Positions 1 to 62,333 of a DNA stretch of 64,000 bases are shown in pieces; position 1 is the first letter of the stretch; every line of letters begins with the position of its first letter. A model generated the notes under the pieces. That model was given only the letters and a program-made list of their open reading frames with translations, was not told the DNA's origin and made no database searches. The stretch is from Schmidtea nova (Eukaryota). The translations under genes were made by a program, and so were the position numbers. The stretch covers positions 276,644,001 through 276,708,000 of the forward strand of contig CM097883.1 in NCBI GenBank assembly GCA_044892505.1. The letters run 5' to 3'.

Positions 1-1894
1 CTTCCACTATATCTGGTCTATAGCTGACCACCAATGTTTCGCGTGTTTCGACTTCCTTATATACCAAAGACGAAATCACGTATGATTTTCCGTTGGCCTC
101 CAATACGCCATAGTAAGGGAAGTTTGAAACTGATGATTGGTGTACCGGTTTCCCGTCGTATTCTTTTATCCGAGGTACCCAATTTCTCTCTGGTCGCTGC
201 CAAAAACTAGGGTCTTCATTGTCCAAATCCTGGGGTATCTTTGCTGAATTTCCCGTTCCAACGAAATCCCCTTCTCTTATAATAATAGGTTCGCCCTTAA
301 CCTCCGGAATCTGTTCCATATCGGGTGGGATGAATGCTGTTTCGATTAAATCTTTGTCTTCCGTCGAGATGGGATTTGGTACTTTCTTTTTGATCTTTAG
401 ATCTTGTAACCTTACAACAGGTTCTTGACTTTTCTTTGGGGGTGACTTTTCTACTGAAGTCAATTTTTTAAAAGTCTTAGTAACTTTTTCCAAGAGCTTG
501 TTCTCTTTCTTTGGTGGATTTTCTGGCACGATCTTTGTAATTGTACGGCTGTCTCCGTGTAAAGTTAAACGCATCTCTGTTTGCTCCTCACCCTCGCTTT
601 CGCAGGTGGCGTAATCGTCTTCATCAGCTAAGGATATAGCTGGAGGGGATAGTGATTCTTCCTCAACTATCTTTTGCAATTTGGTTGATAATGGTTGTTC
701 CTGGGGTAAGCTCTCAATAGCTTTCCTTTTACTCGTTTCTTGTGGCTGTATTGTATGAACCATTTTGACTTCTGATGTAATCGTCCCACTACGATTACCT
801 GGGGTAATGTCATCTACCCAAACTTCTCTCAGTTTAAGGTAAATATTACGTGTCGTTTCCACGTCATTTTCCGTTTTCAGATCTGAACGGTTTAGTTCTT
901 CTTTTTCGAGAATTGACTTTGATAAATACGCGAGTCGATAATGTCCGTTACATTTCTTTAGTTCTCTCGCTTCCAGGCATTTTGCTGCTCCTAGTTCTCT
1001 AATGCCCAATACTCGTTGAGGGTGTAACTGGACTGCTTCCAAGAAATCGTTGACTTGGAGACCTATTAGAATTTTCCCATCACATAATTTTCTAATACGG
1101 TCTGCGCAATCCTCTCCATCAAATTGTCCGATGATTTCTTTTTCGGTCATACCATGCACGTGCGATTGGTAATGTTTGACCTGGTTTCTGGGTGTAACCA
1201 CCGTGTTTAGTATTAAATCACCACAGTAGTTTGCTATCGAAACAGCCACCAAAGCTGGCTTTAAATAATCTCGCAAAGTTGCGTAATGCGCTGCAACAAA
1301 TATTGACAATCTATCTTCTTGATTGGGGTGCAGATTCATCCGAACAAAGGATTTGAATGATTTGAGATCGTTCTCATTCACATTATAGGTCCAGGCAGGT
1401 TCATTTTTCCACAATGATTGCACTGCCTTGCTAGGTTCCAAAATCTCTAATACCACAATAGTATTATATCCGTCACATTGGATGGAGATATTCTTTTCTC
1501 TGCCATCTCCGTTACTAATTTCTAGAGTTGATTCTGGTTGAAGTAGGATGGGTCCTGTGGCTCCTGCCATGAAGATTGTAAAGGGTTTATTGATCGCGTG
1601 AATCAGGAGATGGTGAGTAAATGTTGATCTGTTAAATTCCGCCATGTGTTCAGTCAACCGGGTGTTCTCACGGCTGGTAATTGTGACTATGCACATTTGT
1701 CTCTTAGGCGATCCGAGAAACTTAAAATTGTTTGGGATGCCGGTGCAGTGCCCGTAATACCAATAGCGACGACCTTTCCGTGCTTCTGCGGATATCGCTT
1801 TTTCGATGTTTCGATAAATCAGTTTTTCCTTCTGTACTGTTTGCACATCGATAGTGCTATAACGCTGCTTGTATTGTGACACTTGATGCTTCAT
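1..1894 (-). CDS. Accessory ORF (>630 aa, open to window edge) with a REXO4/ISG20-like DEDDh exonuclease fold lacking the Exo I acidic residues
   Basis: Manual translation from ATG 1894 (MKHQVSQY...) shows no stop down to position 1; the frame is also open upstream to the TGA at 2083-2081. Residues at about 818-1306 read ALVAVSIANYCGDLILNTVVTPRNQVKHYQSHVHGMTEKEI...DGKILIGLQVNDF...LAYLSKSIL...ENDVETTRNIYLKLREVW, paralleling REX4-family motifs. Confidence 0.8.
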   Translation of the reverse strand, partial: MKHQVSQYKQRYSTIDVQTVQKEKLIYRNIEKAISAEARKGRRYWYYGHCTGIPNNFKFLGSPKRQMCIVTITSRENTRLTEHMAEFNRSTFTHHLLIHAINKPFTIFMAGATGPILLQPESTLEISNGDGREKNISIQCDGYNTIVVLEILEPSKAVQSLWKNEPAWTYNVNENDLKSFKSFVRMNLHPNQEDRLSIFVAAHYATLRDYLKPALVAVSIANYCGDLILNTVVTPRNQVKHYQSHVHGMTEKEIIGQFDGEDCADRIRKLCDGKILIGLQVNDFLEAVQLHPQRVLGIRELGAAKCLEARELKKCNGHYRLAYLSKSILEKEELNRSDLKTENDVETTRNIYLKLREVWVDDITPGNRSGTITSEVKMVHTIQPQETSKRKAIESLPQEQPLSTKLQKIVEEESLSPPAISLADEDDYATCESEGEEQTEMRLTLHGDSRTITKIVPENPPKKENKLLEKVTKTFKKLTSVEKSPPKKSQEPVVRLQDLKIKKKVPNPISTEDKDLIETAFIPPDMEQIPEVKGEPIIIREGDFVGTGNSAKIPQDLDNEDPSFWQRPERNWVPRIKEYDGKPVHQSSVSNFPYYGVLEANGKSYVISSLVYKEVETRETLVVSYRPDIVE

Positions 1895-2080
1895 ATCTGA
1901 AAGAAAAATAATTAACGTTAATATCAGATATACTGATAGGCCAATATTGGCTAAAAAGAAATGCATAAATCTCGATTTACGGGATCTACTTATGCTGTAA
2001 GTTAATGCTACTCGGAGCTCAACAAGATTATAGATTTTAATATATATATAAATACAAATATGCGATTTTATCTGTAATTG

Positions 2081-2242
2081 TCATAATCTCGTCATCATAA
2101 TCCCATCAACCGACTCAATGGCCTGACTGAAGAATAGTTTCATCCAAACTCCCATTGCTATCAATGTAGTGATCATAGCTAATACTGCTGACGTAATAAT
2201 CCATACCCAACGGGTAATTTTCCCAAGTGAGTAATGGGGTTT
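2081..2242 (-). other. Transmembrane-anchor peptide encoded in the -1 frame relative to the polyprotein end
   Basis: The -1 frame reads KPHYSLGKITRWVWIITSAVLAMITTLIAMGVWMKLFFSQAIESVDGIMMTRL*. It opens just before A-AAC-CCC (2242-2236). Confidence 0.6.
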
Positions 2243-5200
2243 ACTTCATTAACTTCACACTGACAACTTTTAATATAGCTTTCTGTTGATACTGTTGGTT
2301 TTACCATTTTCAATCCTTTCAATCTCTGCCATATTGCAGGATGAATGACGTAACTTTCTTTCCGTATCAATGATGTAACCGATTTCGTTGTCGTCGATGA
2401 TTGTGGTAATTTCAAAGAGATAACTTCATAAAATACCTCATTCCATTCATCGACTCCTGGCTTTTGTTTATTATTCATATAAGTGATATGAGCTTCCCAC
2501 TCCACTGAGCTGTTCCACTTGAGATTTTGTTTCTCAATATCTTCATTTAGCCACAATTCTTGTACTATTTCCTTGTCGGAATGGATTTCTATCTTTACTC
2601 TATCCACTCCTTGTTTTGGTTGGCTGAAGGTAATCATACCTTGTTGGATATTTATTCTAACTTTCCTTTTGAAATCTGCTGTCTTCAACTTCCATTGTGA
2701 CTTTGAAAAATCTGACCATCGTCCAAACATAAAATGTTGAACAAGTATATCTAACAGATATTCCTTTTCTGCTCGTAAGTCCTTTATGACTTTCACTCTT
2801 GTGTTTGAATCCAATGTAAAATGGAAACAACGTCGTTCGCAAAACGAGAACTTGAATTTTGTATCATTTTCAGCTAATGATATTATCCTAAATTCCTGGA
2901 AAGATCTTCTAAATGCGAGATCTTGAATTTGTACCGCTGTTGGAACAAATGTCTTTACACAGGATATAAGGCAACTTATTATTACCAAAAACGTAACTGA
3001 TTTTGGCACGCCTCTTGATCGTAATGGATATCTGTCTGAGACTGGTTCTGACCCTTTATCCTCCTTTTTCTTAATCGGATCTTTCTCCGTGACCGCAACT
3101 TTCTTGCATCTGTTAGCATGTACCATTATTGGTTCAGCTTTTCTATTTGCTACTAATTGCAAGATTAAATTCGTGTCTGTGGTTCTCAAAACCTCATATG
3201 GTCCTTTGAAGTTTCTCATTAATTTAGGTGATAAGCCCTTTTTATTATAATGGCTTTCCAACATCACCTTGTCTCCAACTAACATGCCATGTCCTTTGGC
3301 TTTCTTATCATGATAATCTTTCGACGCTTCCTGACTGAATTTTATACTAAGACCTGCTTTTGTCCATGCTTCTTGCATTCTTTCTCTCATTTCCATGAGA
3401 TAATCCTCTTGGTCTAAATACTGCGTTGCTTTTGGGAAAAACAACAAGTCTATAGGCATTTTACTTTGCCTTAAATACATGAGATAGAACGGCGTTTGTC
3501 CCGTACCCTCATGAACAGCATTTCTGTATGCGAATAAGCATGATGGAATATGTATATCCCAATCCGTTTGCCCTGAATTTACGTATGATGCTAGCATATT
3601 TGCGAGCGTTCCGTTAAATCTCTCTACCAATCCGTCTGTTTGTGGATGATACGGAGAGGTATTCAATTTTAAAATGTCGAAATAATCATTTATTCCTTTT
3701 AACAGATTACTCATGAAATCTGCTCCTCTATCTGTTAGTAGTTTTGTAGGTACTCCATACCTAAAAACAATTTGCTCTACGAAAATCCTGGCTATCGTAT
3801 CTGCCTTGTGATTCGGTATCGGATAAGCCTCCAGCCATTTTGTCAGGTAATCGCAAAATACCAATATGTATTTGTTACCACTATTTGATTCTTTGAATGG
3901 CCCTAAAACATCCATCGCCGTCATTTCCATCGGTGTGGATGGTACTGGCATTGGTTTCATTGGCACATGAGGTTTCTTCCCCGTATTTCTCCTGGTGATA
4001 CAGATCTTACATGTCTGACACCATTCCTGTACGTCTTGTTTTATTGTCGGCCAGAAATATTTCTGCTTCAACCTTGACAATGTTTTCCTGGAAGACAAAT
4101 GCCCTCCCAGTGCTCCATCATGATATTGTAACATCAAGGCTTCCCGATATTTCTTAGGGACCATTATGACATTATCCCTTACGTCTACATATTTGACTAA
4201 TCCTTCTTCTAGAATAAATTTGTCTCGATTTTTCTCCCAATATTTATTAAATTCCGTCGGTATGAACTTTGCTTCTAAAGCCTGTCTGATTTGGTTTATC
4301 TCTTCATCCGATTGTTGTGCTGCCATTAAATCCGCGAGTCTGTTTGCTTCTCTTGTAAGTGCGAAGATTGTTCCTTCTAATCTTCCTTCTTTGATATCTT
4401 CTGCTTCATCACCTTGGTCCATTCGCGAAAATGCATCTGCATTCCCATTTTGATGTCCTTTTCGGTAATGTATTTCGATGTCATATGGCTGCAAGATCAA
4501 TGCCCATCTAACCAACTTTGATGTATCCATAGTATGCTTTGTTAACCACTGTAATGGTCTATGATCCGTATACACAATGATCTTTCGACCCCATAAATAT
4601 GTCCTGAATTGGTGTATAGCATACACAATTGCTAATGCTTCTAATTCGATAACTGCATAATTCTTTTCATGTGGTTTTAATCCTCTGCTAGCATACGCTA
4701 TGGCATATTCGTCTCCTAGGTCATCTCTTTGACCTAACACAGCACCAATACCCCGAGTGCTGGCGTCCGTCATGACCAAAAATTGTTTCTCAAAATCTGG
4801 AAACCGTAATATAGGAGGTTCCACGAGCATCCTCTTTAGCATATCAAATGCTTCCTGTTGCTCTTTTCCCCATACAAATTTGACATTTTTGCCCTCTAAT
4901 TGTGTCAGAGGAAATGCTATTGCCGAAAAGTTCCTGATGAACTTTCTATAATATCCCACTAAGCCCATAAACCCTTTTATATGTTTGACTGTCTTTGGCT
5001 CTGGAAAATTCTTTGCTTTCTCAACATTTGCTGGATCTGGTTTTACTCCATCCTTCGAGATAATGTGACCGACATAGACTACCTCTGATTCGGCCCATTT
5101 ACATTTCGATGGTTTTACCTTAAGATTTGCATTAATTAACCTTTTGAATACGTCCTCTAAATGTTCTAAATGTTTTTCCAAATCTGGAGAAAATACTATG

Positions 5201-8200
5201 ATGTCATCTATGTATACCATTGCATGATGAACATCCATTAACATTAGATTCATGGCTCTTTGAAACGTTGCCGGCGCTCCTGTGAGACCAAATGGCATTA
5301 CTGTATATTCGAAGTGTCCAAGGCTTGTAGAAAAAGCCGTAATTGGTATTGTCTCCTCTTTTAACTTGATTTGGTAAAATCCCTTCTGAGCATCCATCAC
5401 TGAGAAATATTTTGAATTTCTCATGCGTCCGTAAATGTAATCCAGTAATGGTAATGGGTGACTATCCTTGCAAGTTGCTTCGTTTACCATTCGATAGTCG
5501 TTGCATAGTCGTACCGTTCCATCCTTTTTGGCCACCACTATCATTGGTGACTGGTATGGTGATTTACTATGCCTGATGATGTTATGTTTTAACATCAGTT
5601 TTACCTGCTTATCGACAGGTTCTTCCAAGCTAAACGGAATTCGATACGGTCTCAGTTTTATTGGTTTCATGTTGTTAAGAACAATTTCATGTTCCAACAA
5701 GTTCGTCTTTCCCAGATCATATTCGTGCTTGGCGAATACTTGATCATATTTTCTTAATAACATGTTGACTTGGATATTCTCTCTTCGTGAAAGAGCTTTG
5801 CTATTTGCCGTTGGCGCATCATAGTACTCGATGTCTGATTCTCTATTTTCTGCCTTTATTGTCAGGACAGATCCTCCATTTGGTAATTGATCCGACTTTG
5901 ATACTCTCCCTACTCTTGTATCTGGGTACAATTTTAATGGTTTTATATCTAAATTGGCTACCCGAATTGGTATTCTGCCATTTTCAACTTTACCAATGCT
6001 ATGCGTAATTGGTAGATTATATTTTGCTGAGAACCTTTCATCTGGTTCGAATACAACTTCTCCTTCCCACTGTTCGCTAGTGGACACGAAACATACTGTT
6101 TCTGCTCTGGGTGGTATTATCATCGTATGGTCGATGAAAACTGTATCATCATTATAAACTTTTCTTTTCTTACCGATTGATCTAACTAACAATCCGGTAG
6201 CACAGTCAAATACAACTCCTTTTAATCTTCTTAAAAGATCCATTCCTAGTAGACATTCTACTGGACAAGTTCTCATGACTATAATATCATGACGAAATTC
6301 TTGGTCACATAGCTTGATGTTACAAGCTAGAGTACCAATAATATTCAATGATGTGCCTGTAGCACCTGTTAGCGAAACTCTTGAGGTTTCCATTGATTCC
6401 AATTCTTTTTGATTTAATAGTGTTGCCTCTATGATGGTGCCGTCTGCTCCTGAATCTATCACTGCATTAACTGTGTGTCTGTTTATTTTTATCTTTATCA
6501 TGGGTTTCTTATCCAAGTTCACCCCATTTGCCATCAAAATAGTAGCATGCGTTATCCCGATGGTATTTGCTCTGAATTTCTCTGCTTCATCTTGTTCGGT
6601 ATCACTCAATTTTGGATTATATTCCTTAAATTTAGCTTTTATTGCTTCTAACGACTCGATAGGATACAGTTTCCCTTCATTTTCTAACGATAATGATATG
6701 CTTTTACCAGTCTCTCGAGCATCTTTGTCGAGAATTTGTTGATGTTTAGAAATGTACATTTTGTTTCTTGGAGTGGTTAAAGCATAATTTTGTTTGCCCT
6801 CTCCTGATGTCTTTTGAAACTCTGGCGATTCCCCCTTTGGCGCTGTTGGCAAGCTTCTAAGATATGGTAATTGCATATATCTTGGGCTTCTTTTCAATCT
6901 AGGTGATGCTGTATTGATTGTAAATTTCTGGTCTGCACTATCGTATTCATCTTCTGAAATCATACTTTTGTCGAAAATCTGTTTTGTCGCTTCGTAAGGT
7001 GGTTGATAATCCCGATATTTCATTTTCCTTAACTGATGATTCGGTTTTTTATTGTAGTTTCTTTTTCGACTTCTACTTTGCCTCTGAACTGTATTAAGAG
7101 AGTCTCCATTACCTCCTCCTTCCGAATTGTTATCGTCCCGATAACTTGTATTACCCTCCATTTCGATTCCAATAATCTCGTGTTTTACCAAGCTTCTCTG
7201 TTTGATTGTCTTTATTTCTTTACGATGATGTTTAAACAATGCAAATTCCGCACACATAGGACACAATCCTAGTATCAACTTCCAAGACCATCCACCGATT
7301 TTGAATATACTGTATGTGGAGATTAATTGTGTTATTATTAACTTTAGAATTACGAATATTGCATATATTCCTGAGCAGCCTGCCACGAAAATACCAAAAT
7401 TGGTAAACCTTCCCCATATTTTCATCATCACATTTTTAGCTGCTTCTTTATAATGATCTGGACCGAATAATAAATTGTAATCTGGTCTCATTTCGTTTGC
7501 TTGGTAAATTGTTCTTATGATTTCAGTGATACCTCTTTCTCTTACTTGAGGGAATAGCAATGTCTGTCTTGCCTCCTCAATGTCTGCTGAAGTGTAAATT
7601 CCTCCTTGTGATAATTCATCGAGTGATTTAAATTCCATGTTTTCCTCGAGTTTCGTGACTTCCAATGTTTCCACCTTTCTATTAGATGGTTTTCTGTCAG
7701 GTAATGAGATCCATCTATCATTTACCTTGTATAACGGTGATATTGCTGGATTGCAAATTGAAGGTTGAGGCTTTTGTTTTTCATCCAAAAGTCTCCTCGT
7801 AACTGGCATTACAAATCGTATTTTGTTTTGATATGACACTGGTAATTCTAGAGTACATTCATTATACCGAGTTAATTGTACCTCTATGGGTTGACATTGA
7901 TAGCTGTATATAGCTTCCCCCATAATTCTGCCAAACATTCCATCTTCTAGCAACATAGGTGTCACTAGATCCGGATTCACAATTGATATCGCTAATCGAT
8001 TTCGAACTATTTCGCGATTTAGTTTGCAATCATTGAGTATTACTTCCTGATACATTTCCTGCATTTGTCCTTGCAGATCATGATATAAATAATCTATTTT
8101 ATTATTTATATAGTTCGTGATTTTGATATCCTGGCTGTGAATATTCTTGGCTTTTTGGATGAATGTTTTTGACAAATATAATCCTTTATAGTTGGTCTCA

Positions 8201-11200
8201 TACACCACTTTTCCGCATTTTGTCTTCTTATCTTTTCTGACAAATCTGATTGCATCTTTCTTATCTTCTGATACTAATACTAGAGGTGTGATTTCCTCAC
8301 TAATATCCTCTTTTTGCTGTTTGTTGATCCTTTTCAACGTCTTTTCTTTATCCCAAATTCTTTCTCTTTTGGGTAAATCTCGATACTTTGTCCCGTTCAA
8401 CTTATGGAAATTAATTTTCTTTAGTAATGACAATTCGCAATGGTCTAGTATTTGATCGTATAATAATGTAATGACCCCTGTTCTGCAGCTTCCAAATTTC
8501 GCAAGGCACTGAGGGTGTGCCATTAATCTTCCTGATAATACATCGAACGTTCCTTCGTATTCTCTTAATTCGATTGAATAGTCCTCGATATCTACGACAA
8601 AACTTACCAACTCCGATCCGCGAGTTTTCTTTCTTCCCGTACAGGTACCATCTGATCCGATTGATCCTCCTCGTGTAATGGTTACTCCCAGTGTTTTTCC
8701 TACTTCCGCGGCGATGGTTACCTCGTTATCGATTCTTAAAGTACCTTTTCGAAAGGCGTCTAGACAATCCTCTGGCAATATGTTGACAGGTCTAGGTATT
8801 AGAGTGGCTGATAGAAAAGCTGTATAGCTGTGTGAACCACAATAATATTCAAACGTTGCTCTTTGGACTCTACATTCTCTTATCTTAGTTCTGAAGAATT
8901 CACTTTCTTGGTAGACATAGTATTCGACCTTTTCTCCTGTTTGGACCTTTTCTGGATGTGCCTCTTTGCACTCAATTGCATCTACGAGCGAATATATCCG
9001 AGCTAACTTTGGATCACTGCAATCAAACGCTGTCATTGTGTTTGTCTGTTTCATTATCCCCATCATTACTAAAAACATTAATATCATATTCGTCATATTC
9101 CCCATTCCTCCATTTTCGAGGTGGTTGTTATTCATAGCCTCTTCCACAAATTCATATCGTGGTTTATGTTTCTCCTCTTCCCAGAAATTATTTTCACTCA
9201 TCCACGTTCCGAGATAATGCTCCGTTATCTCCGTGATCTGGTCTATTTCTCGATTAATAAGCTTCTTCTCATTGCCTGCGCGGGCTAAAGCATCTTGAAT
9301 CAACATAGATAATGCTGTCACTATTTTTCCTTTAGATAACCCATCTTGTATGAGTGTCTCTAACATACTCTGTATCTCGTTTTGCGGTACCCCTCTAGGT
9401 AATCTCCTCATCGTCTTCGCGATTGACTGTGTTACTTTATCCACTTGAATTCCTTTAATCCGAGTAATCTGCCATTCTGGCTTTAATATTCCTATGATCT
9501 GTTTTAATCTCTTCCATGTCAGAGATTTTTCTGGTATATGTACACCTTCGTCTCTCATATCAACATCCCTGGCTATTCCTGACAGAGTTTTCATCTGAAC
9601 CTGTTTAATGGTTTCTTGGTTTAATTGCTCCGTTGGTGGAGGTTTCATTTGATCTTTCCTAGGCCTTCCTCGCCTATCTTTCTTTGTCTGCCATGCTGGC
9701 CTGATAGTTTCTACCGCCTGAGAAGTTGAAGCTCCCACGTTAGTTTCCTCATTATTGAGTCTGATTTCCTCTTCTCCGTGATTATCGGCATCGATATCTA
9801 CATTAAATGGTTGTGTTTCAACATTACCAGTGACCATTTCATCTGGTAACCGTAATGCTGACCATTGAGATTCAGGTGGCTCTACGGGAATGATTGCTAC
9901 CGTTGTAGTTTCAAAAGGTAGACATCCCACATCTACTAAATATTCATCATCATCCACTTGTCCTCCATGAATCATAATCAAGAATATACCGGTAGTCTGC
10001 CCAGTATCTATTAAATCCTTTCTCAACGTTATCACTTTGCTAAAACAACGATATAACCTCGTCATGGGTTCTTTTCCCGATATTCGAATGTCTAAAGTTA
10101 TCATGCCTTGTCGATGTGCTTGATGACGTATTGCTGTTCCATTTTTTCTTATTAACATTTTTATTTCTGTTTGAAAAGAACTAGTTTCTTTTACTACAGG
10201 TAGTAATATAGGAATTATATTCTCCAATGATTCTACTGGTATGCGCAATACCAACATCCAGTCTAATATTTCCTTGATTGTTTCTCCATCCCTCGGAGAT
10301 TTCTGCAGCTCTATCTTCAGACGTTGCTCTATTTGTTGGACCTCCTCCAACTGTGCAATTTCCATTTGTGTGAGTAGAAACACACTGTCTTGATCCACTA
10401 CTGGGACCGATATTCCTGTCAGTTTCGTTGTGAGTTTCGTTACCCTTCCTGGTAATACACCATTTTGTAGTAGTGTTTCCCCAACTACTAACTTTTCTCC
10501 ATATAAATAAAAATCATATCTATTATGTTTCAATTTCATCATTGTATCTGACAACTTATCTGTTCGACATCTTACATTCATGTCGATGTTAAACTCCTGC
10601 TCCTGAGGAAGTTTTATGTTTAAATGCGAATCCTGAAGATCCCATTCATGCTCCATTGCAGTTCCTATCTTTCGTAGGATTTTATGTATGTCGCTATTAT
10701 ACCTTGGATCATCTTCGACCTGAGATATTAATTGTAATATCTTTCCAATTTCACTATTCTTGATATCACCTTGTGATAATTTCTCTAATTCTCTAGTCAG
10801 TCTCTGCTGATACTCATATCTGGAATCCACCAGTTTTAAACATTTTGCTAGGGTATCTGACCCTTTCTTGGCCTTTGTTTCCTTGAACAAAGCCTGGTCG
10901 AACTCGCTCAGTATGGTACTCATACTGGGTTCGTCATCATTATCAGAATTTGTCTCTGATTCTATTACCTCATGATTCTCGCTGCTGGAATCCATGGGTT
11001 CACTATTTCCTTGCTCATCTGTGTAAGCATCATGATTTTTCTCAGCTGAAATCATCAAAACTGTTCCTTGCCCAACTGTGTGAGCATCATCGCTTTCCTC
11101 AATGGGATTCATTATAACTGTTCCTCGCCCATCCATGTGAGCATGATTTTTCTCAGCTGAAATCATAAAAACTGTCTCTTGCCCAACTGTGTGAGTCTCA

Positions 11201-12468
11201 TTTATTTCTTCAATTTTATTCATCAAAACTGTTCCTCGCTCATCTGTGTGAGCATGATTTTTCTCAGCTGAAATCATAAAAACTGTCTCTTGCCCAACTG
11301 TGTGAGTCTCATTTATTTCTTCAATTTTATTCATCAAAACTGTTCCTCGCTCATCTGTGTGAGCATGATTTTTCTCAGCTGAAATCATAAAAACTGTATC
11401 ATCTCGATCCATTAGCCGTGCTAATCGATTTTTCTCCTCCTGGATTTCCATTTCCAGTTGTTGCAAATACGTCAATTCTTTATCGTGATTGACCATGAAC
11501 GTAGTTTTCGGCTTGCTGACATTACCACTATTGGTAATCCTACTATTCGTATTATTACTCTGATTTTGAGGACACGACCTCAGAATATGCCCGAATTTTC
11601 CACATCCGTGACATTTTATCTTCCCTGATGAATTCACATCATCCCTTTTAATATTAAAATTCCCATTCGTTGGGAGATTCCTAACTCTACAAACGGAAGC
11701 AACATGCCCTCTGCGTTTGCATTTATCACACTGCAAGTTCGTGACTCTACAGTTCTCAACACTATGATTATTCATACCACATTTAGTACACTGAATACCC
11801 CTACGAGTATCAGCTACCTTCTTACTGTGGCAATCTTTTGATATGTGCCCTTTCTTATGGCAGTTAAAACATTCAATTGCTGGCTTCTCATTATTTACCA
11901 TAAATGATGTAGCTTTTTCTAAGCTGCTTTCGATTACGACAGCTTTTCTTGTTAATTCCCAAAAATCATCTCCCGTGTGGAGAATCAATGCATTTCTCAT
12001 TACATTTGTGAATCCAGCTAATAATTGGTCTTTAACCATAGCTTTAGTTGCATCATTCCAGGTAGTTCTGAGCCCAAATGCTCTTTCTGCTAATAACAAT
12101 AATTGATAGGAAAATTCTCCTACATGTTCATTTGCATTCTGCTTCCTGTGATAAAATTGTTGTCGGAAAATTCTACTTGAATCTCCCGGTAATATTCTAG
12201 CCGTTAGTGATTCTCTCATCTTTTCCCATGTACCTGGTTTATCTGCTGCTGGTAACGCCATAATATCATTGTAATTTTCCCTTGCCATACCCTTAAGGTA
12301 AATTGGCAGTCTTTGTATCATTATTGCATCTGGATACCCATAGGCCTTTGCCATCTGATAATACTCTGACATAAACTCCGGAAATTCCCCTGGATCTCCG
12401 CTAAATGCCTTGACAGGTAAAGCGGGATATCTAGCAAAAACATTATTCTCTTCAGCCATGTCCTCCAC
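2179..12468 (-). CDS. 3429-aa Gag-glycoprotein-Pol-ectodomain polyprotein
   Basis: Uninterrupted ORF in the track, with recognisable Gag, viral glycoprotein, PR, RT, RNaseH and IN motifs in that order. Confidence 0.95.
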   Translation of the reverse strand: MEDMAEENNVFARYPALPVKAFSGDPGEFPEFMSEYYQMAKAYGYPDAIMIQRLPIYLKGMARENYNDIMALPAADKPGTWEKMRESLTARILPGDSSRIFRQQFYHRKQNANEHVGEFSYQLLLLAERAFGLRTTWNDATKAMVKDQLLAGFTNVMRNALILHTGDDFWELTRKAVVIESSLEKATSFMVNNEKPAIECFNCHKKGHISKDCHSKKVADTRRGIQCTKCGMNNHSVENCRVTNLQCDKCKRRGHVASVCRVRNLPTNGNFNIKRDDVNSSGKIKCHGCGKFGHILRSCPQNQSNNTNSRITNSGNVSKPKTTFMVNHDKELTYLQQLEMEIQEEKNRLARLMDRDDTVFMISAEKNHAHTDERGTVLMNKIEEINETHTVGQETVFMISAEKNHAHTDERGTVLMNKIEEINETHTVGQETVFMISAEKNHAHMDGRGTVIMNPIEESDDAHTVGQGTVLMISAEKNHDAYTDEQGNSEPMDSSSENHEVIESETNSDNDDEPSMSTILSEFDQALFKETKAKKGSDTLAKCLKLVDSRYEYQQRLTRELEKLSQGDIKNSEIGKILQLISQVEDDPRYNSDIHKILRKIGTAMEHEWDLQDSHLNIKLPQEQEFNIDMNVRCRTDKLSDTMMKLKHNRYDFYLYGEKLVVGETLLQNGVLPGRVTKLTTKLTGISVPVVDQDSVFLLTQMEIAQLEEVQQIEQRLKIELQKSPRDGETIKEILDWMLVLRIPVESLENIIPILLPVVKETSSFQTEIKMLIRKNGTAIRHQAHRQGMITLDIRISGKEPMTRLYRCFSKVITLRKDLIDTGQTTGIFLIMIHGGQVDDDEYLVDVGCLPFETTTVAIIPVEPPESQWSALRLPDEMVTGNVETQPFNVDIDADNHGEEEIRLNNEETNVGASTSQAVETIRPAWQTKKDRRGRPRKDQMKPPPTEQLNQETIKQVQMKTLSGIARDVDMRDEGVHIPEKSLTWKRLKQIIGILKPEWQITRIKGIQVDKVTQSIAKTMRRLPRGVPQNEIQSMLETLIQDGLSKGKIVTALSMLIQDALARAGNEKKLINREIDQITEITEHYLGTWMSENNFWEEEKHKPRYEFVEEAMNNNHLENGGMGNMTNMILMFLVMMGIMKQTNTMTAFDCSDPKLARIYSLVDAIECKEAHPEKVQTGEKVEYYVYQESEFFRTKIRECRVQRATFEYYCGSHSYTAFLSATLIPRPVNILPEDCLDAFRKGTLRIDNEVTIAAEVGKTLGVTITRGGSIGSDGTCTGRKKTRGSELVSFVVDIEDYSIELREYEGTFDVLSGRLMAHPQCLAKFGSCRTGVITLLYDQILDHCELSLLKKINFHKLNGTKYRDLPKRERIWDKEKTLKRINKQQKEDISEEITPLVLVSEDKKDAIRFVRKDKKTKCGKVVYETNYKGLYLSKTFIQKAKNIHSQDIKITNYINNKIDYLYHDLQGQMQEMYQEVILNDCKLNREIVRNRLAISIVNPDLVTPMLLEDGMFGRIMGEAIYSYQCQPIEVQLTRYNECTLELPVSYQNKIRFVMPVTRRLLDEKQKPQPSICNPAISPLYKVNDRWISLPDRKPSNRKVETLEVTKLEENMEFKSLDELSQGGIYTSADIEEARQTLLFPQVRERGITEIIRTIYQANEMRPDYNLLFGPDHYKEAAKNVMMKIWGRFTNFGIFVAGCSGIYAIFVILKLIITQLISTYSIFKIGGWSWKLILGLCPMCAEFALFKHHRKEIKTIKQRSLVKHEIIGIEMEGNTSYRDDNNSEGGGNGDSLNTVQRQSRSRKRNYNKKPNHQLRKMKYRDYQPPYEATKQIFDKSMISEDEYDSADQKFTINTASPRLKRSPRYMQLPYLRSLPTAPKGESPEFQKTSGEGKQNYALTTPRNKMYISKHQQILDKDARETGKSISLSLENEGKLYPIESLEAIKAKFKEYNPKLSDTEQDEAEKFRANTIGITHATILMANGVNLDKKPMIKIKINRHTVNAVIDSGADGTIIEATLLNQKELESMETSRVSLTGATGTSLNIIGTLACNIKLCDQEFRHDIIVMRTCPVECLLGMDLLRRLKGVVFDCATGLLVRSIGKKRKVYNDDTVFIDHTMIIPPRAETVCFVSTSEQWEGEVVFEPDERFSAKYNLPITHSIGKVENGRIPIRVANLDIKPLKLYPDTRVGRVSKSDQLPNGGSVLTIKAENRESDIEYYDAPTANSKALSRRENIQVNMLLRKYDQVFAKHEYDLGKTNLLEHEIVLNNMKPIKLRPYRIPFSLEEPVDKQVKLMLKHNIIRHSKSPYQSPMIVVAKKDGTVRLCNDYRMVNEATCKDSHPLPLLDYIYGRMRNSKYFSVMDAQKGFYQIKLKEETIPITAFSTSLGHFEYTVMPFGLTGAPATFQRAMNLMLMDVHHAMVYIDDIIVFSPDLEKHLEHLEDVFKRLINANLKVKPSKCKWAESEVVYVGHIISKDGVKPDPANVEKAKNFPEPKTVKHIKGFMGLVGYYRKFIRNFSAIAFPLTQLEGKNVKFVWGKEQQEAFDMLKRMLVEPPILRFPDFEKQFLVMTDASTRGIGAVLGQRDDLGDEYAIAYASRGLKPHEKNYAVIELEALAIVYAIHQFRTYLWGRKIIVYTDHRPLQWLTKHTMDTSKLVRWALILQPYDIEIHYRKGHQNGNADAFSRMDQGDEAEDIKEGRLEGTIFALTREANRLADLMAAQQSDEEINQIRQALEAKFIPTEFNKYWEKNRDKFILEEGLVKYVDVRDNVIMVPKKYREALMLQYHDGALGGHLSSRKTLSRLKQKYFWPTIKQDVQEWCQTCKICITRRNTGKKPHVPMKPMPVPSTPMEMTAMDVLGPFKESNSGNKYILVFCDYLTKWLEAYPIPNHKADTIARIFVEQIVFRYGVPTKLLTDRGADFMSNLLKGINDYFDILKLNTSPYHPQTDGLVERFNGTLANMLASYVNSGQTDWDIHIPSCLFAYRNAVHEGTGQTPFYLMYLRQSKMPIDLLFFPKATQYLDQEDYLMEMRERMQEAWTKAGLSIKFSQEASKDYHDKKAKGHGMLVGDKVMLESHYNKKGLSPKLMRNFKGPYEVLRTTDTNLILQLVANRKAEPIMVHANRCKKVAVTEKDPIKKKEDKGSEPVSDRYPLRSRGVPKSVTFLVIISCLISCVKTFVPTAVQIQDLAFRRSFQEFRIISLAENDTKFKFSFCERRCFHFTLDSNTRVKVIKDLRAEKEYLLDILVQHFMFGRWSDFSKSQWKLKTADFKRKVRINIQQGMITFSQPKQGVDRVKIEIHSDKEIVQELWLNEDIEKQNLKWNSSVEWEAHITYMNNKQKPGVDEWNEVFYEVISLKLPQSSTTTKSVTSLIRKESYVIHPAIWQRLKGLKMVKPTVSTESYIKSCQCEVNEVNPITHLGKLPVGYGLLRQQY
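2236..3000 (-). other. Post-integrase extension: hydrophobic signal-like segment, one or two FN3-like domains, Ser/Thr stalk
   Basis: RYPLRSR then VTFLVIISCLISC; IKDLRAEKEYLLDILVQ...GRWSDFS (FN3 L-x4-Y-x3-V pattern and WSxWS-like motif); sequons NDT and NSS; stalk PQSSTTTKSVTS. Confidence 0.55.
3140..4330 (-). other. Integrase domain
   Basis: HDGALGGH...CQTCKIC; MDVLGP; TDRGADF; LVERFN; GPYEV; no chromodomain seen. Confidence 0.93.
4425..5760 (-). other. Reverse transcriptase and RNase H domains
   Basis: RLCNDYRMVN, MPFGLTGAPATFQR, VYIDDIIVFS, TDASTRGIGAVL, ELEALAIV, TDHRPL, NADAFSR; catalytic residues intact. Confidence 0.95.
6200..6510 (-). other. Retropepsin (aspartic protease) domain
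   Basis: VNAVIDSGADGTII ... CLLGMDLL. Confidence 0.9.
7200..9105 (-). other. Chuvirus (Jingchuvirales)-like fusion glycoprotein embedded in the polyprotein
   Basis: Signal-like MILMFLVMMGIM, then AFDC, CRVQ...YYCG, GSIGSDGTCTG, CLAKFGSC, YETNYKGL, YINNKIDY, GRIMGEAIYSYQCQP, CTLELPV...FVMPVTRRLL, GGIYT, and WGRFTNFGIFVAG leading to a TM segment. The motif order matches the chuviral G family as I recognise it. Confidence 0.85.
9653..9684 (-). other. AT-hook motif
   Basis: KKDRRGRPRKD fits the R-G-R-P core with basic flanks. Confidence 0.6.
9886..10623 (-). other. Two putative ubiquitin-like (beta-grasp) modules separated by a helical segment
   Basis: FYLYGEKLVVGETLLQNGV (10432-10623) and LIMIHGGQVDDDEYLVDVG (9886-10104) resemble the ubiquitin/SUMO LIFAGKQLEDGRTLSDYNI segment; neither ends in GG. 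Confidence 0.4.
11010..11397 (-). repeat. Coding tandem repeat, 111 bp / 37 aa, about 3.5 copies
   Basis: TVFMISAEKNHAHTDERGTVLMNKIEEINETHTVGQE occurs twice identically, then a diverged third copy and a partial fourth. Confidence 0.97.
11570..12468 (-). other. gag: Gag: capsid-like domain plus four CCHC zinc knuckles
   Basis: FSGDPGEFPEFM...LPIYLKGMA; CFNCHKKGHISKDC, CTKCGMNNHSVENC, CDKCKRRGHVASVC, CHGCGKFGHILRSC. Confidence 0.9.
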
Positions 12469-12528: not shown

Positions 12529-12546
12529 ATCACGTCGGGCTCACCA
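12529..12546 (-). promoter_or_regulatory. Primer-binding site complementary to the 3' end of tRNA-Trp
   Basis: TGGTGAGCCCGACGTGAT differs at one base from the tRNA-Trp PBS TGGTGACCCCGACGTGAT, and lies 3 nt after ...CCGAACA. Confidence 0.85.
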
Positions 12547-12549
12547 AAA

Positions 12550-13358
12550 TGTTCGGTTCGTATCAGTGGTTTACGACGAACACAGAAATATAAATATATA
12601 TTTGATACTTTAGTTTGATTATCGGACTCCAAACGATAATCCGCTTATTAATTATAAATAAATTATATGTTTTAGGTTGTGTGTAAAGAAAAACAAGATC
12701 TAATTCCTTTTAATAATATGTATTGTGAAATATGTAAATCAATGTACAATATAATAAAATAGCTGCTAAGCAAAAGTTAGAGAATCGGTTATACAAACCG
12801 TCCTAAGATGTTTAAGAACGAAAGCTGGACCTAAAAGGCTCAACAGCTCCGACTAAATGAAAGGACACAAGATGAGGGGTTTCCCTGTAGTTTAACCGCG
12901 ATAGTGACAACCCAGAATTGGTTGTCACTGTGACTTAATAATTTTCCCTTCTAATAATTTATTATTTAACGATTTTGCTGAAGGGGAAAAATAGTAATAC
13001 AACTATTTCCCCGTGATCGATTTATAAGATTTAAAACAAAACTAGGAAAATTACCAGCTACTAAAGATTATTCCAATTTAGGGAAATTATCACGAACGAA
13101 ATTCAAGCTAAGCTTCTTGTAATACTTCTGCCGTAAAATTAATTTCTCCAATTCACAAATTTGTCAAACTAAAATTCTAAAATTCACTTCGGTAAAATTT
13201 ATGTTCTGTAAACACTTATGTTTCTCTCTCTACTTCTGTCAAAATTACTTTCTGTTTCAACTGATTTTGCAATCAGTTTATATACAAATTATTTTCTCTC
13301 ATGTAGGTCTAGACGACCACCTATTACTAACTACGTGTAGGTCGAAATTGACCTTACA
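12550..13358 (-). repeat. Putative 5' LTR (~809 bp)
   Basis: Ends in ...AACA just before the PBS; candidate start TGTAAGG at 13358, beyond which the sequence becomes low-complexity AT. The outer boundary is unconfirmed because the partner LTR is off-window. Confidence 0.6.
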
Positions 13359-13580
13359 AAATATTACTTTTAAAGTAATTTATTATTACTATATATATCT
13401 TATTATTACTATTTAAATTTCTTATGTATTTATTTATTACTATATTTATTATATATTATTTAATTATTACTGTATTTAATCTATATTTATTTATAGTAAT
13501 TATTTATTTATTTTCTATTTATCTATTTATTTATAGTATTTTTTAATTACTATTTATATTTATTTATTTACTTATAATAT

Positions 13581-15605
13581 TTAATTACAAAAACCCCGAG
13601 ATCCCTTGATCTCGAACCCTAACAGTCCTTCATCCTGTGACATTTCTTCATGAAATCTCTTTCTTTGCCGAACTCTTTGTTGCTTATAGTCAGTATTAAT
13701 ATCACATTTTTTAGCCAGCTCAGTTGCTTCATTCTCAATCTGTTCGAACTCAGATTCAAATTCACTACGCATGTTTTTCATATCGTTTTGAAATAGTTGA
13801 ATCAAATGAGAAGCTGTTGCCAAATCAATACTACTTCTCTGCAAATATGTGGACAGACTGAAAGCCTTATCTAGCACTTTTTTCCATAATATTAAAAGAA
13901 CTAAGAATTTGTATGCATAAAGTGTTACAAGAATACCCTTTGCCTCAGCCACCTGTTTAGAAGTACAGTTTTTTAACTCACCATCCACAATTCGTTGCAG
14001 GGCAACTAATAGTGCTGGTAAATTCTGCAAGACTGCATCTACAGCTGATTTCCTGGATGCCCATCTGGTTTCGCAAAGTCTTTTTAGAGTTAATGTAAAC
14101 GATTTTATATGATTGCATTGTTCTTTTAATATTGAAAGACGAGGTAAACTGCCAGAAAAAAATGTATAAAAACTTTCAAGGGTTCCAAAAAATAACTGAG
14201 TTTGAACATTGGAGGTTACTGTGTCAATTAGAATTAAATTTAAATTTGGTGCACAACAGTGGGTAAAGAGCGCATTTGGAGCAATCTGCCTAACTCTTGC
14301 TTGGAGACCTGATATTTCCCCCGACATTGTGCTAGCTCCATCATATGACTGACCATAACTCATAGTTATTGACAAATCCAAGTTTTCAATTGCTGAAACA
14401 AAAACGTTGAAAAAATCTGGGGCACTTGCTCCCGGTAATTCACTGAATTTTTTAAACCTCTTTACTGCATCGCCATTTTCTGTTACATATCTTAAAGATA
14501 AAGAAAACTGGTCAATGCTACTTATATCAATAGTTGAGTCAACAATCACTGCAAAATACTTAGCTACTTTGATTTCATCCACAATATTTGATAGAATCTG
14601 AGATGATATGGATTGTATCAGATCATTTTGTATATCGGGTCTGAGATATGTTGCATTTCGATCAATCATTAATAAATGTTGTTCCAATATTGCATCATTT
14701 TTAGCCAACAGTTTAATCAGTTCAAAGAAATTCCCTTCGTTTGTCACTGGTGAACCTAAGCCTTGATACTCACGATGGCCACGGAATGCCAATCCTTGTT
14801 TTCCCAAAAAAAGTACTGCATCAATGATACGTTTTAAAATCATCCTATTTTTTCTATTTCTTTCTTTTCTGTTGTCAGAAGACCAGACAACACAATTCTA
14901 TCGTTAAACAACCGGAATTTTGTAAGAAATAGTTCTTTCTCTGCTTTTTTGTGACTTTCGCTACTTTCATGTTTTTCAATTTTGTGCGTGCCTTAAGCAA
15001 AATTCTTGCAGCCAATATTTGGATCACTTCAAGTATCGGATCGACTAGCAAAAAGCCAACAAGCAAAACAAATCATTATATTAGCTTTTGGTGAGTAGAC
15101 CAGCCAATGTCTATCAATTTCTCGACCACCTTTTACTTGTTTCTTCTTATACCAATTAGCACTGAAATGACGTCCAGTTTCATCTTTTGGGAAATTTTCA
15201 AATTTATCTTTAAGACCCAGCTGACACGGACTTAACTCAAGTAGTGCACGAACTAGTTCTGGCGGCACAGGTTTGTCACAAAACAGATGTGGATCTGTTG
15301 GGTATTCCATGTTTGGGTCAATAACTGCACGAAGTCTTATTCTAACTGTGTCATCTTCGTCCTCCACAATAGGGTCTGTTGACGTGATTAGGCCTACTGT
15401 TGAATCAGAACCCACTTCCTGAATAGTCACGGCAGCCGGAGTTGTGGTGTTGTTATCAACTCCTAGATTTGTTGTGAATTCTTTTTCTGACACGGAAGAC
15501 GTCGCAGACATTGTTGGATTGCTGAATGAAAAATATGCATCCAATTTTGTATATTTTGAAGATTCTCTTTCACGATCTTCGACTTCTTTTTTCCTCTTTT
15601 TATCC
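13581..15605 (-). pseudogene. hAT (ZMYM1-like/DUF4371) transposase, frameshifted and truncated at both ends
   Basis: TTF-type zinc finger WLVYSPKANIMICFACWLF; KHESSESH in a shifted frame; LGKQGLAFRGH, DSTIDISSIDQ, YDGASTMSG, HCCAP (HCxAH altered), CETRW; no C-terminal dimerisation domain. Confidence 0.88.
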
Positions 15606-23539: not shown

Positions 23540-51008
<27,469 letters not shown>

Positions 51009-55192: not shown

Positions 55193-57104
55193 CCGTATTT
55201 TCGCGCATATAACCCGCATACGCGTATAATCCGCACACACGTATAACCCGCACAAATTACATAATAAGTAAAATAAAATCGTATAGCCCGCACCTATGTA
55301 TACCCCGCATATGTACAAGGTTAACTAATCATTAATCATTAACTAATCATTAGCATTCATTATAGATATTCAGTAGTGTTTGTTACGTCTAAAAATGCCA
55401 AAGCGGAAGTCTTATACCGCTGATTTTAAGCTACAAGTTTGTGCGCTTGCTGCTACAATAGGCAATAGAGTAGCTGGGAGGCAGTATGCTGTTGATAAAA
55501 AATCTATTCGTTAATGGCAAAAAGACATTAAAAGTTTAGAGCAGATTAATCCACGCAAAAGAGCTCGTCGATGGGGAAAGGTTAGAGGGCCGCAGCTTGA
55601 GACAAACCTTTCAGCATGGGTTCGCTCTCAGCGTGAGAACAACAGGGCAGTGTCAACAGTTGGTATTAAATTGAAAGCGAAAATAATGGCTGCTGAAATG
55701 AAGATATATAATTTCACTGGTGGCATCAACTTGGTTTTAAAATTCATGAGACGTAATCAACTTTCCGTTCGTGCACGCACAACGGTTGGCCAGAAACTGC
55801 CAGAGAATTGGGAAAAGAAAGTAGACGACTTTCAGGAATTTGTTAGAAGAGATATTGCAGAACAGAACTTAAATCCTTGCGATGTCATTAACATGGATGA
55901 GGTGCCTATTTCTTTTGATATTCCAGCAACTCGCACTGTCGCAGATACTGGTTCTAAAACGGTTCCTATTACCACAACCGGACATGAGCGCACATGTTTC
56001 ACAGTTGTCCTGGCATACTCAGCTGCTGGTGAGAAGTTGAAACCAATGGTTATATTCAAACGAGTGACAATGCCACGTGAGAAACTGCCACAAGGAGTGA
56101 TTGTTGTGTGCAACAAAAAAGGATGGATGAACACTGGTGTGATGAAAGAGTGGATTGAAAGATGCTATCGTGCTAGACAGGGTGGATTCTTTATGCCAAA
56201 ATCGTTGTTAAGTTTTGATGCAATGGCTGCACACAAAGAGACATCTGTTCACAAACAGATCAATAAGACTGGTGCTCACATTTCTGTCATTCCAGGCGGT
56301 TTAACATGTAAGCTTCAGCCACTTAATATTGCTGTTAATCATCCATTCAAGTGTTTTGTCCACAATGAATGGGAAAAATGGATGAGTGAAGGCGAACACA
56401 CATTCATACTAGCTGGAAAGCAGAGACGTGCTACGTACGTTGAAGTATGCAAATGGGTTCTGGCAGCGTGGCAGCAAATCAGCACAGAAACTATTCGCAA
56501 CGGTTTCATTAAGGCTGGCCTGCTAACGGTGACCAGTAGTGAAGTTAATGCAGAGCCAGCAGTAGAGGAATGTTTCGATTCAGCTGACGATGATGATAGT
56601 GATGAAGAGTCAATTTATGACCAAGGTACTGCTGCCAACATGCTTCGGTTCCTTGATGAAGACAGTGAATATGATACAAGTTTCGATTGCTTCACTAACT
56701 GTAGCGAGGACAGTGACAGTAATGGTGATTGATTATGAATGTATTGCATGAAATGTGGACTATAGGTTTGGACATTACTGCCGAATTGGTTTACTTGCTT
56801 ACTTATGGCAATTGATTATATTAAATGTTCTCTGCCACATCCGTATAACTTGTTTTCTAAACGTGTATTATTTGTAAATTTTCTTCTAATGAGATGTTCA
56901 TAAAGTTATTCGTTTTACATTTGAGAACCACACAGCGAAACTACAGATTTTAACACAGTGGATAAATGCGTGAACCTCTATTGAAGGTAAAAGTTTTATG
57001 AGTAAAATTATTTTTGAAAACCCCGCACCCTTGCATACCCCGCACAGCGACAGTTTGTTTGTAAAAACTTGTATAACCCATGGGTTATATGAGCGAAAAT
57101 ACGG
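55193..57104 (+). mobile_element. Full-length pogo-family (POGK-like) DNA transposon, inactivated
   Basis: 23-bp TIRs CCGTATTTTCGC(G/T)CATATAACCC, TA TSD. Confidence 0.93.
55395..56732 (+). pseudogene. pogo transposase (Brk-type DBD, CENP-B HTH, DDE_1) with a premature stop
   Basis: MPKRKSYTADFKLQV...; TAA at 55512-55514; NMDEVP, SFDAMAAH, and LQPLN in place of QPLD. Confidence 0.9.
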
Positions 57105-60396: not shown

Positions 60397-60515
60397 TGTA
60401 GTGCCTTAGATTAAATTTTCAATTTTATAAATTAATTAATTATTAAATGGAGTAAAATAGATGTTGTTTTAATATTTACATATTTTCACTTTCATGCTAA
60501 TCAAAAAAAAACAAA

Positions 60516-61739
60516 ATGCAAGCTGTTAACAATGATTCGATATTCCCATTCACCCAAGACATTCACAGTGACTCGTTTTCATCAAATGACAACAATTATC
60601 AGTTCTACTCTAGTGGAGATGGTGTAGTCAATATTCAAAGAAGAAACAATTGCCTGTTCCGTAGATTGCAGAAATGTTTCGCTGCTGAAATGCGTAAAGA
60701 AGCCGTACAAACTGGAACATGCCTGTCAACAACTGGATCAATATTAATCTACTATCCAGACAAATCTGAAATCACTAACTCAAAAAATCTACAAATCAAT
60801 ACATTGGATCACAATCAATCTCGATTAAACGATTATTCGCCAGCACCAGAAATCAATCAATACGGACTGTCATGGAGCTCGCTCATTTCAACTCTTGTTA
60901 TCATCGGTCAAGATTTCCGGTTGCCAAAAACCGACTTATCAATTAGCGATCAATTTCTATTAATAAAAACTTATTTGCTTTTATTATTCCTACGATTGGT
61001 GTCAGAAGTGACAAAAGTAAGCTTTTTGAATTTATTATGTAAATATTTAAATTCGTTTAATTGCTCCATTTATATTAATAATAATTTTAATAATATATTC
61101 AATAAAAATTTTAATAATTATTTTAATAATAATTTTCATACTCCGATAACCAAAACTACAACAGTTTCCTCTACGTGTTCACAACCATTTACCCTTCATG
61201 ACGGCTTACTCAACATCACTGTACGCCACAAAAATATTATTCACTCAATTAAAATACCACGACAAACTTTTTTAACGATATTAAACGTTTTTTTAATAGA
61301 ACACAACGACTTCTTTATTTTAAATAACAGAGTTCCCATCACAGATCCTCTTTCAGTCCCAACAAACGCAATAATAACACTCTTCATGCGGGCAAGAGGC
61401 GGTGCCAAAACTTACAATGACCATAACCCTCCCACGTCCATAGGTCACACTCAACTGATATTTTTAGACGCAGACGGCACACTATCATCTTGGTTCCGAA
61501 TTTTTGAATCGCGCACTAGAGCCAATCCCAAGTCTAGGCAAGATCTTCTGCTGGATGCAATACCCGACGAGTTAATGTCAGAATTAGGCTCACAAATAGC
61601 TGACGCATTAAACTCAGAAACCCCTTATGAATCAATCAAAGCGGTCATAGAAAAAAAATATTCACCCACGCGCACTTCAGCGATCGAAAAGTTATCAAAA
61701 CCCACCCTATACGCCGGTCAACCCCCATCATCCTTTTGA
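60516..61739 (+). CDS. 407-aa ORF: unknown leader, ubiquitin-like domain (61209-61403, ends RGG), N-terminal Gag
   Basis: ORF track; LNITVRHK...ITLFMRARGG followed by the Gypsy Gag-like SWFRIFESR...YESIKAVIEKKYSP...PPSSF*. Confidence 0.55.
   Translation: MQAVNNDSIFPFTQDIHSDSFSSNDNNYQFYSSGDGVVNIQRRNNCLFRRLQKCFAAEMRKEAVQTGTCLSTTGSILIYYPDKSEITNSKNLQINTLDHNQSRLNDYSPAPEINQYGLSWSSLISTLVIIGQDFRLPKTDLSISDQFLLIKTYLLLLFLRLVSEVTKVSFLNLLCKYLNSFNCSIYINNNFNNIFNKNFNNYFNNNFHTPITKTTTVSSTCSQPFTLHDGLLNITVRHKNIIHSIKIPRQTFLTILNVFLIEHNDFFILNNRVPITDPLSVPTNAIITLFMRARGGAKTYNDHNPPTSIGHTQLIFLDADGTLSSWFRIFESRTRANPKSRQDLLLDAIPDELMSELGSQIADALNSETPYESIKAVIEKKYSPTRTSAIEKLSKPTLYAGQPPSSF
60997..61010 (+). promoter_or_regulatory. 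Primer-binding site (tRNA-Leu type)
   Basis: TGGTGTCAGAAGTG is a common tRNA-Leu PBS of animal Gypsy elements. Confidence 0.75.
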
Positions 61740-62287: not shown

Positions 62288-62333
62288 AAAAAACTAGCGC
62301 CGCTGTCTGTCAACCCTGGATTTTCAGGCAGCG
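62288..62333 (+). promoter_or_regulatory. -1 ribosomal frameshift cassette (gag to pol)
   Basis: A-AAA-AAC slippery heptamer before TAG, 6-nt spacer, stem CGCTGTCTG/CAGGCAGCG. Confidence 0.8.

Follow-up and report, generated by a model that had tools for sequence, protein, structure and literature searches.

ORF2, the second reading frame of a Ty3/gypsy LTR retrotransposon in Schmidtea nova, encodes a conserved accessory protein that joins two predicted enzyme folds, neither of which appears to retain its full set of catalytic residues. In our favoured reading, which we hold at about even confidence, this double pseudo-enzyme likely binds RNA without cutting it and likely protects the RNA of the element or sequesters host small RNAs. 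While exonuclease cargo of LTR elements is known, the sequences point to two new features: the fusion of an AlkB-like with a REX4-like domain, an architecture not met in the accessible literature searched, and a dead form beside intact sisters. Families of the same layout with and without catalytic residues, both under purifying selection, form a natural matched pair in one genome, which makes the question of whether such proteins cut or just bind directly testable with natural domains. To our knowledge, few animal retrotransposons encode counter-defence proteins.

The element that carries ORF2 measures 15,064 bp and extends from the window (the whole 64,000-nt stretch analysed) into the neighbouring genome stretch. 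It has a TG...CA LTR pair, a primer-binding site, a polypurine tract and a short target-site duplication, and its domains follow the Ty3/gypsy order, with Gag preceding PR-RT-RNase H-integrase. The features up to the end of ORF1 are:

13629..14897, minus strand: hAT-type transposase (DUF4371), broken by the element; its C-terminal part resumes past the 3' LTR
13625..13628, minus strand: target-site duplication, 4 bp (GGAC on the minus strand)
12550..13624, minus strand: 5' LTR, 1075 bp, TG...CA; an identical 3' LTR lies 365-1439 bases left of the window
12530..12546, minus strand: primer-binding site, the same in four families and presumably tRNA-Trp-like
2179..12459, minus strand: ORF1 polyprotein, 3426 aa, with Gag carrying CCHC knuckles, fusion glycoprotein, PR, RT, RNase H, integrase and a tail
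7204..8949 (start approximate), minus strand: Monjiviricetes-type fusion glycoprotein (PF24664), in frame in the Gag/PR interval, Pfam E 3e-89, best Pfam stretch 7204-8298
3595..6513, minus strand: PR-to-integrase region as a whole, with Pfam matches to PR (6217-6513), RT (5059-5532), RNase H (4483-4872) and integrase (3595-4161)

The family of this element is young and abundant. Its 40 scored DNA matches are 98-100% identical, the 30 bases around the ORF2 start are matched exactly at 76 places in the genome, and LTR pairs are 99.4-100% identical in five of the nine other fetched copies (the five with both LTRs recovered).

The original prediction described a stop-free frame of more than 630 codons that runs off the edge of the window and forms an accessory ORF of an element. 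Indeed, on the minus strand no stop interrupts this frame between 2080 and the window edge, and it holds 631 codons from the ATG at 1894. Extension to the left placed the stop 70 bases past the edge, followed by the polypurine tract and then the 3' LTR. Because ORF2 lies within the LTRs of an element that interrupts a hAT-type transposase, it is cargo of the element and not a host exon. Its layout is:

1897..1911, minus strand: putative 3' splice acceptor seen in the sequence, a pyrimidine tract plus CAG two bases before the ORF2 ATG
2..1894, minus strand: ORF2 accessory protein, 654 aa
1415..1894, minus strand: N-terminal domain, aa 1-160, modelled as a double-stranded beta-helix of AlkB/2OG-Fe(II) oxygenase type
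809..1327, minus strand: REX4/ISG20-like DEDDh pseudo-exonuclease domain by predicted fold, aa 190-362
1286..1294, minus strand: Exo I D-x-E position, reading A201-A-H203
1043..1048, minus strand: Exo II, with F284 at the catalytic position and D283 one residue off register
863..880, minus strand: Exo III, with L339 replacing His and D344 kept
260..808, minus strand: low-complexity linker, aa 363-545, with a P/E/S/T/K/Q fraction of 0.56
2..259, minus strand: conserved C-terminal block, aa 546-654, running off the window, 36-42% by tblastn to other dead families

The acceptor AG is retained in 39/39 other copies, and an acceptor-like AG stands shortly before the ORF2 ATG in most sister families and in a metagenome contig, which suggests that ORF2 is expressed through splicing at this site. 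A search for genomic copies joined at the acceptor gave 0 matches versus 76 unspliced ones, with a pattern that is blind to a junction with C three bases upstream. An in-frame ATG at 1966, which would add 24 hydrophobic residues, was not accepted as the start, because the pyrimidine tract overlaps it and the homologues start at the position of 1894. The C-terminal part had been described as low-complexity and probably disordered; this holds for the linker, which is probably disordered, but not for aa 546-654, a block conserved within the dead families. Word-seeded searches with ORF2 aa 1-370 found no homologue, a metagenome scan with an alignment gave 143 pattern matches and 0 relatives, and homodimer prediction for aa 1-370 gave a score of 0.00 and no verdict.

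The resemblance of aa 190-362 to REX4/ISG20 nucleases, first read from sequence motifs, extends to profile and structure comparisons. Phmmer matched this part to ISG20L2 (E 1e-5), and the Atlas assigned ORF2 a PF00929 score of 0.96. An AlphaFold model of aa 1-370 built on a 77-row alignment reached pLDDT 94.6, Foldseek with this model returned ISG20L2 (E 5e-9), and comparison with ISG20 gave Z 18.2 and rmsd 2.9 over 161 aligned residues. The domain is thus predicted to fold like ISG20/ISG20L2, and the objection that a DEDDh fold might be missing fell away. Comparison with known structures also argues against the DEDDy class: the best matches are DEDDh, and the intact relatives carry H...D in Exo III, the window copy itself being degenerate.

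The five catalytic positions read A201, H203, F284, L339 and D344, so that by alignment four of five catalytic residues are lost and D344 alone is kept. A201, F284 and L339 are each present in 40/40 copies, H203 in 38/40 (Q and Y once each), and D344 in 39/40 with E in the remaining one; across the dead clade, the last position is D, E or M. The loss of the Exo I D-x-E, the missing Exo III His and the retained Exo III Asp were read correctly in the original prediction. The retained Exo II Asp was not: D283 is off register, and in an ungapped profile-profile alignment to intact relatives F284 falls on the catalytic D/E. In ISG20, the catalytic Exo II Asp is D94 (PMC5388505, accessible text); counted in the phmmer alignment, it stands six residues past a conserved Gly, where F284 aligns. 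The residue before Exo II is D, N, E or K in dead relatives and never acidic in 37/37 intact element-type relatives. Catalytic degeneracy is therefore real, but it goes further than claimed, with one of the five residues left.

The N-terminal region, originally described as an unknown domain of about 190 aa, comprises a domain of about 160 aa and a link of about 30 aa, and an AlkB-like fold is now predicted for the domain. Modelled alone, aa 1-160 reached pLDDT 87.9 and matched OsALKBH1 with Z 11.1 and rmsd 3.4 over 139 aligned residues; ALKBH6, ALKBH7, Ofd2 and a prolyl hydroxylase tie within 1 Z of OsALKBH1, whereas plain cupins reach Z 8.4 or less over about 95-107 residues. Foldseek gave ALKBH7 (E 3e-4). 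The model therefore predicts an AlkB/2OG-oxygenase-like fold without the iron triad: aa 1-160 contain no HxD/E motif, and the last strand lacks the Arg expected from RxxxxxR. Within the segment assigned from general AlkB topology, HxD/E occurs in 3/57 rows at unrelated positions. P54, N55 and H99 are invariant in 14/14 rows and E150 nearly so, and these residues may mark an unusual ligand site.

Sequence comparisons did not link the N-terminal domain to AlkB proteins. Alignment by hhalign to a two-sequence host AlkB alignment gave a probability of 0.05, a PDB profile search returned nothing significant and the Atlas no usable match, and a word-seeded search with the N-terminal alignment among longer proteins found no homologue. 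A search for an element-borne intact AlkB with PF13532 gave five matches in the genome, none at ORF2; the two loci opened look like host ALKBH3- and ALKBH8-type genes. On the predicted structure, the domain is at most a degenerate member of the fold, and we withhold its assignment as AlkB.

Residues retained in both domains bear on whether ORF2 could still be an enzyme with a rearranged metal site, built for example from D283 and D344 or from H99 and E150. D283 adjoins the Exo II position and is fixed in 40/40 copies of the window family, and H99 and E150 show the conservation described above. However, D283 varies across the dead families, and neither the two Exo I acids nor the His remain. 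In ISG20, losing just D94 is enough to abolish activity (PMC5388505, accessible text). With the HxD/E motif missing from the N-terminal domain as well, we regard a surviving enzyme as quite unlikely.

Conservation around the nuclease domain and in the old active site speaks partly for nucleic acid and partly for protein as the ligand. Basic or polar residues kept in at least eight of nine dead-clade rows are R185, K240, H241, R268, R294, R299, K314, K326 and R349; as this genome supplies five of the nine dead rows, such clade-specific conservation is partly kinship. The net charge of the nuclease core is 0 in the window copy, +3 to +9 in the other eight dead rows and -8 to +9 in 17 intact rows. 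Since the dead and intact ranges overlap and the window copy has 0, charge does not single out RNA binding. The old active site of the dead forms is occupied by A, F and an invariant L (L339, 9/9 dead rows), and this hydrophobic filling, like the neutral core of the window copy, counts against RNA binding, as it could close the pocket or form a protein-binding surface.

The filled pocket would suit a decoy or adaptor whose dead folds imitate a host oxygenase or RNase and thereby occupy the partner proteins of that enzyme, with no RNA contact needed. A G131-R132-E133 patch conserved in the N-terminal domain of the dead clade fits this idea, as does the vaccinia C16 domain among the fold matches of the N-terminal domain (Z 8.1). 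C16 is a non-catalytic oxygenase-fold binder of a host protein. Moreover, related giant elements carry many host-interference domains (PMC6431247, accessible text). As a mimic, however, the domain would be poor, being far from host REX4-like proteins, and the conserved basic residues suit nucleic acid. We consider a protein decoy doubtful, and less probable than RNA binding.

To place the dead domain among its relatives, a HMMER search of 1.84 billion representatives was used, which gave 127 matches: 27 incomplete, 74 with all five catalytic residues, 26 with none to two, and none with three or four. Such bimodal counts fit a functional switch rather than slow decay. Labelled by motif, the 74 intact matches comprise 37 REX4-like and 37 element-type proteins. 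One library protein, P0042, sits behind a retroviral-type protease ORF on the metagenome contig L112. On that contig (L112:3-3547), the protease ORF and hydrophobic segments are followed, with no RT before the stop, by an ORF2 homologue with intact residues; this may be a non-autonomous element in which the nuclease was retained.

Searching this genome with an intact library match yielded 116 matches. Twelve of these loci were fetched; an integrase lies upstream in 11 of them and a fusogen in seven within the fetched stretch, and the 11 read D-E-E-H-D at the catalytic positions. By sequence, sister families of the same layout in the same genome thus keep the full catalytic set. Several copies are rearranged: in L121:1835-9733, one copy of an intact family, a single frame of 2633 codons joins ORF2 to a shortened integrase, apparently through an internal deletion, and L117, L120 and L124 are internally deleted copies with part of gag and the nuclease ORF but without pol.

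A tree was built from 55 rows, picked by hand, after deletion of the catalytic columns. It places the dead forms inside the element-type clade (99/93) and REX4-like proteins as sister to that clade (100/100). Because their closest relatives are intact element-borne nucleases, the catalytic loss arose inside the retrotransposon lineage. The twelfth fetched locus, L071 (1909-3711), holds an ORF2 homologue that has lost catalytic residues in a different pattern (D, T, K and K at four positions); it clusters with intact relatives (91/90) and is likely a second inactivation, and the 20 kb fetched showed no pol of its element family. Two losses are required by the best trees, and a single origin of the dead forms is not rejected (AU p 0.39). 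The original prediction had proposed a captured host nuclease fold. The REX4/ISG20-like fold is supported, but a recent capture from this host does not fit: the element clade is old, and the host REX4-like gene (L113, G000:C1, 10.19 Mb), which is intron-split and distantly similar to the element-borne domains, has no tblastn match to the ORF2 domain at E<=1e-3 and reaches about 25% with an intact relative. The distance of the host gene indicates that the capture is old.

The integrase and nuclease trees divide the same nine dead and ten intact rows, which indicates that ORF2 was inherited together with pol. Such vertical inheritance would suit a protein that aids replication from within and has no anti-host role, chaperoning RNA or cDNA during packaging or primer handling or protecting reverse-transcription intermediates. 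In the accessible texts, dead ISG20 competes for a packaging stem-loop (PMC5388505), and 3'-end processing or RNP roles have been suggested for such ORFs (PMC5408684). Yet it is established that ordinary gypsy elements replicate without such an ORF. ORF2 is also separate and probably spliced, and two dead families are only 44% identical in the nuclease domain versus 88% in their integrases, which looks like an accessory gene under host pressure. A replication aid therefore seems fairly unlikely to us, more so than a decoy.

Selection was measured on 40 DNA-ranked copies with shared variants, defined as present in two or more copies; since copies are related, p-values are nominal. A first dN/dS set was dropped, as 20 of its 30 copies came from the top of a protein-ranked list, which biases against amino-acid changes. 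In the nuclease domain, shared variants comprise 22 synonymous and 1 non-synonymous changes (omega 0.01-0.02), compared with 72 and 6 in the RNase H-integrase control. The N-terminal domain has a corresponding ratio of 18:5, the linker, which is thus also under purifying selection, one of 37:14, and the C-terminal block one of 19:2; omega across the whole ORF2 is 0.06-0.09. Singletons, which include post-insertion decay, give 0.2-0.45. Eight copies of another dead family, whose nuclease domain is 44% identical, have 15 synonymous and 1 non-synonymous changes, and between families the domain omega is 0.12-0.24 in three of six dead-family pairs (those with dS unsaturated). The dead domain is kept as tightly as the integrase, and neutral evolution among copies, on which the original prediction could have foundered, was not observed.

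These values weigh against ORF2 being a functionless relic or a host exon carried along by the element. ORF2 has no match in a Pfam scan, and 6/40 copies carry a stop or frameshift, as a relic would suggest; however, 34/40 are open, and flagged copies are fewer than for the 3' part of pol (10/40). The ORF is intronless, lies inside the LTRs and is kept across families only 34% identical. Since the selection test shows constraint, the relic reading is refuted, and we rate it as very improbable.

RNA binding without cleavage is favoured because the catalytic loss is fixed, constraint is strong, basic residues are conserved, and dead DEDD folds bind RNA elsewhere. ISG20 D94G still binds a viral stem-loop (PMC5388505), and PML PXL, left with one of its four acidic residues, is inactive and binds G-rich RNA (PMC13659232); Maelstrom and EXD1, cited in PMC5408684, are further dead DEDD-fold precedents (all from the accessible parts of these papers). 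Under this reading, ORF2 would be expressed from a subgenomic RNA spliced at the acceptor that precedes its ATG, RNA would be held uncut in the old substrate cleft, and the bound protein would shield element RNA or trap host small RNAs. The counter-defence purpose would be common to the intact relatives, which would trim or degrade RNA ends. A broader version, which we put forward tentatively and consider much less secure than the reading for ORF2 itself, sees a widespread env-bearing animal retrotransposon lineage with a two-domain RNA-silencing suppressor that exists in RNA-destroying and, through more than one independent switch, RNA-trapping forms, both recently spread in this genome.

The closest precedent for ORF2 is the set of intact DEDDy ORF3s of bdelloid LTR elements. 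In the accessible text of PMC5408684, Juno/Vesta LTR elements and Athena/Terminon carry an exonuclease ORF3 after pol, a placement like that of ORF2, and its DEED variant at Exo II is shared by the intact sister families found here. ORF3, however, is RNase D-like, DEDDy and intact, it replaces env, and no significant departure from neutrality within the genome was reported for the extra ORFs (PMC5408684, accessible text). In contrast, ORF2 has a DEDDh nuclease fused to an AlkB-like domain, lies beside a fusogen, occurs as dead and as intact lineages, and shows strong purifying selection. No test of the role of the rotifer-element exonuclease ORFs was met in the accessible literature searched.

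Among planarian elements, the giant gypsy Burro/GYPSM1 likewise has a mononegavirus-like fusogen in frame in the Gag-PR interval as well as accessory ORFs, but it exceeds 30 kb, and the Burro section of PMC6431247 names no exonuclease or AlkB-like ORF (this and the layout from the accessible text). MATH, BIR, BCL2, ankyrin and dUTPase cargo of the Burro/GYPSM1 type had no Pfam match in the window element. The second ORF of orchid Gypsy_Pa_2799 likewise encodes a 2OG-oxygenase fold, for which a role against host RNA surveillance has been proposed. That protein was captured recently, is ALKBH5-like, retains HxD...H and RxxxxxR intact and is a proven m6A demethylase (PMC9289625, accessible text), whereas ORF2 shares a predicted fold alone, the motifs being absent and no AlkB sequence homology detected.

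As for host proteins, human ISG20 and ISG20L2 provide the closest solved fold among the DEDDh exonucleases; the ORF2 domain shows 17-18% identity in the structure alignments and differs by the beta-helix fusion, its mobile-element location and the loss of four of five residues. PML PXL, Exuperantia, Maelstrom and EXD1 share the DEDD fold with one acidic residue or none and bind nucleic acid (PMC13659232 and PMC5408684, accessible parts), and Exuperantia is among the fold matches of the ORF2 nuclease domain (Z 10.2). These are host proteins, whereas ORF2 is transposon-encoded and its binding is predicted. The accessible main text of an env-bearing gypsy survey (PMC13524379) does not contain 'exonuclease', 'DEDD' or 'ISG20'. 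A search of open full texts found no REX4/ISG20-type, dead or AlkB-fold-fused retrotransposon nuclease and no dead/intact nuclease pairs in retrotransposons.

ORF1 of the window copy has a private frameshift at about 2200 (minus strand), near the end of the frame, either a real lesion or an assembly error. Its tail is shortened and has no C-terminal hydrophobic membrane-anchor-like segment, which is present in 38/39 other copies. Past the integrase (2182-3050, minus strand), ORF1 contains a signal-like hydrophobic stretch at about 3000 and a domain without a Pfam match; together with the terminal anchor of the other copies, this part resembles another membrane protein, additional to the fusogen. 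The Gag-fusogen interval (9100-11601, minus strand) holds about 830 aa without a Pfam match, including a 37-aa tandem repeat whose number differs between copies. No tRNA genes were found in the 64-kb window. Other transposon ORFs in the window, named by eye, lie at 24939-25484, 32351-36561, 55515-56732 and 60501-64000 and comprise two pogo/Tigger-like transposase pieces and two unrelated gypsy-like elements.
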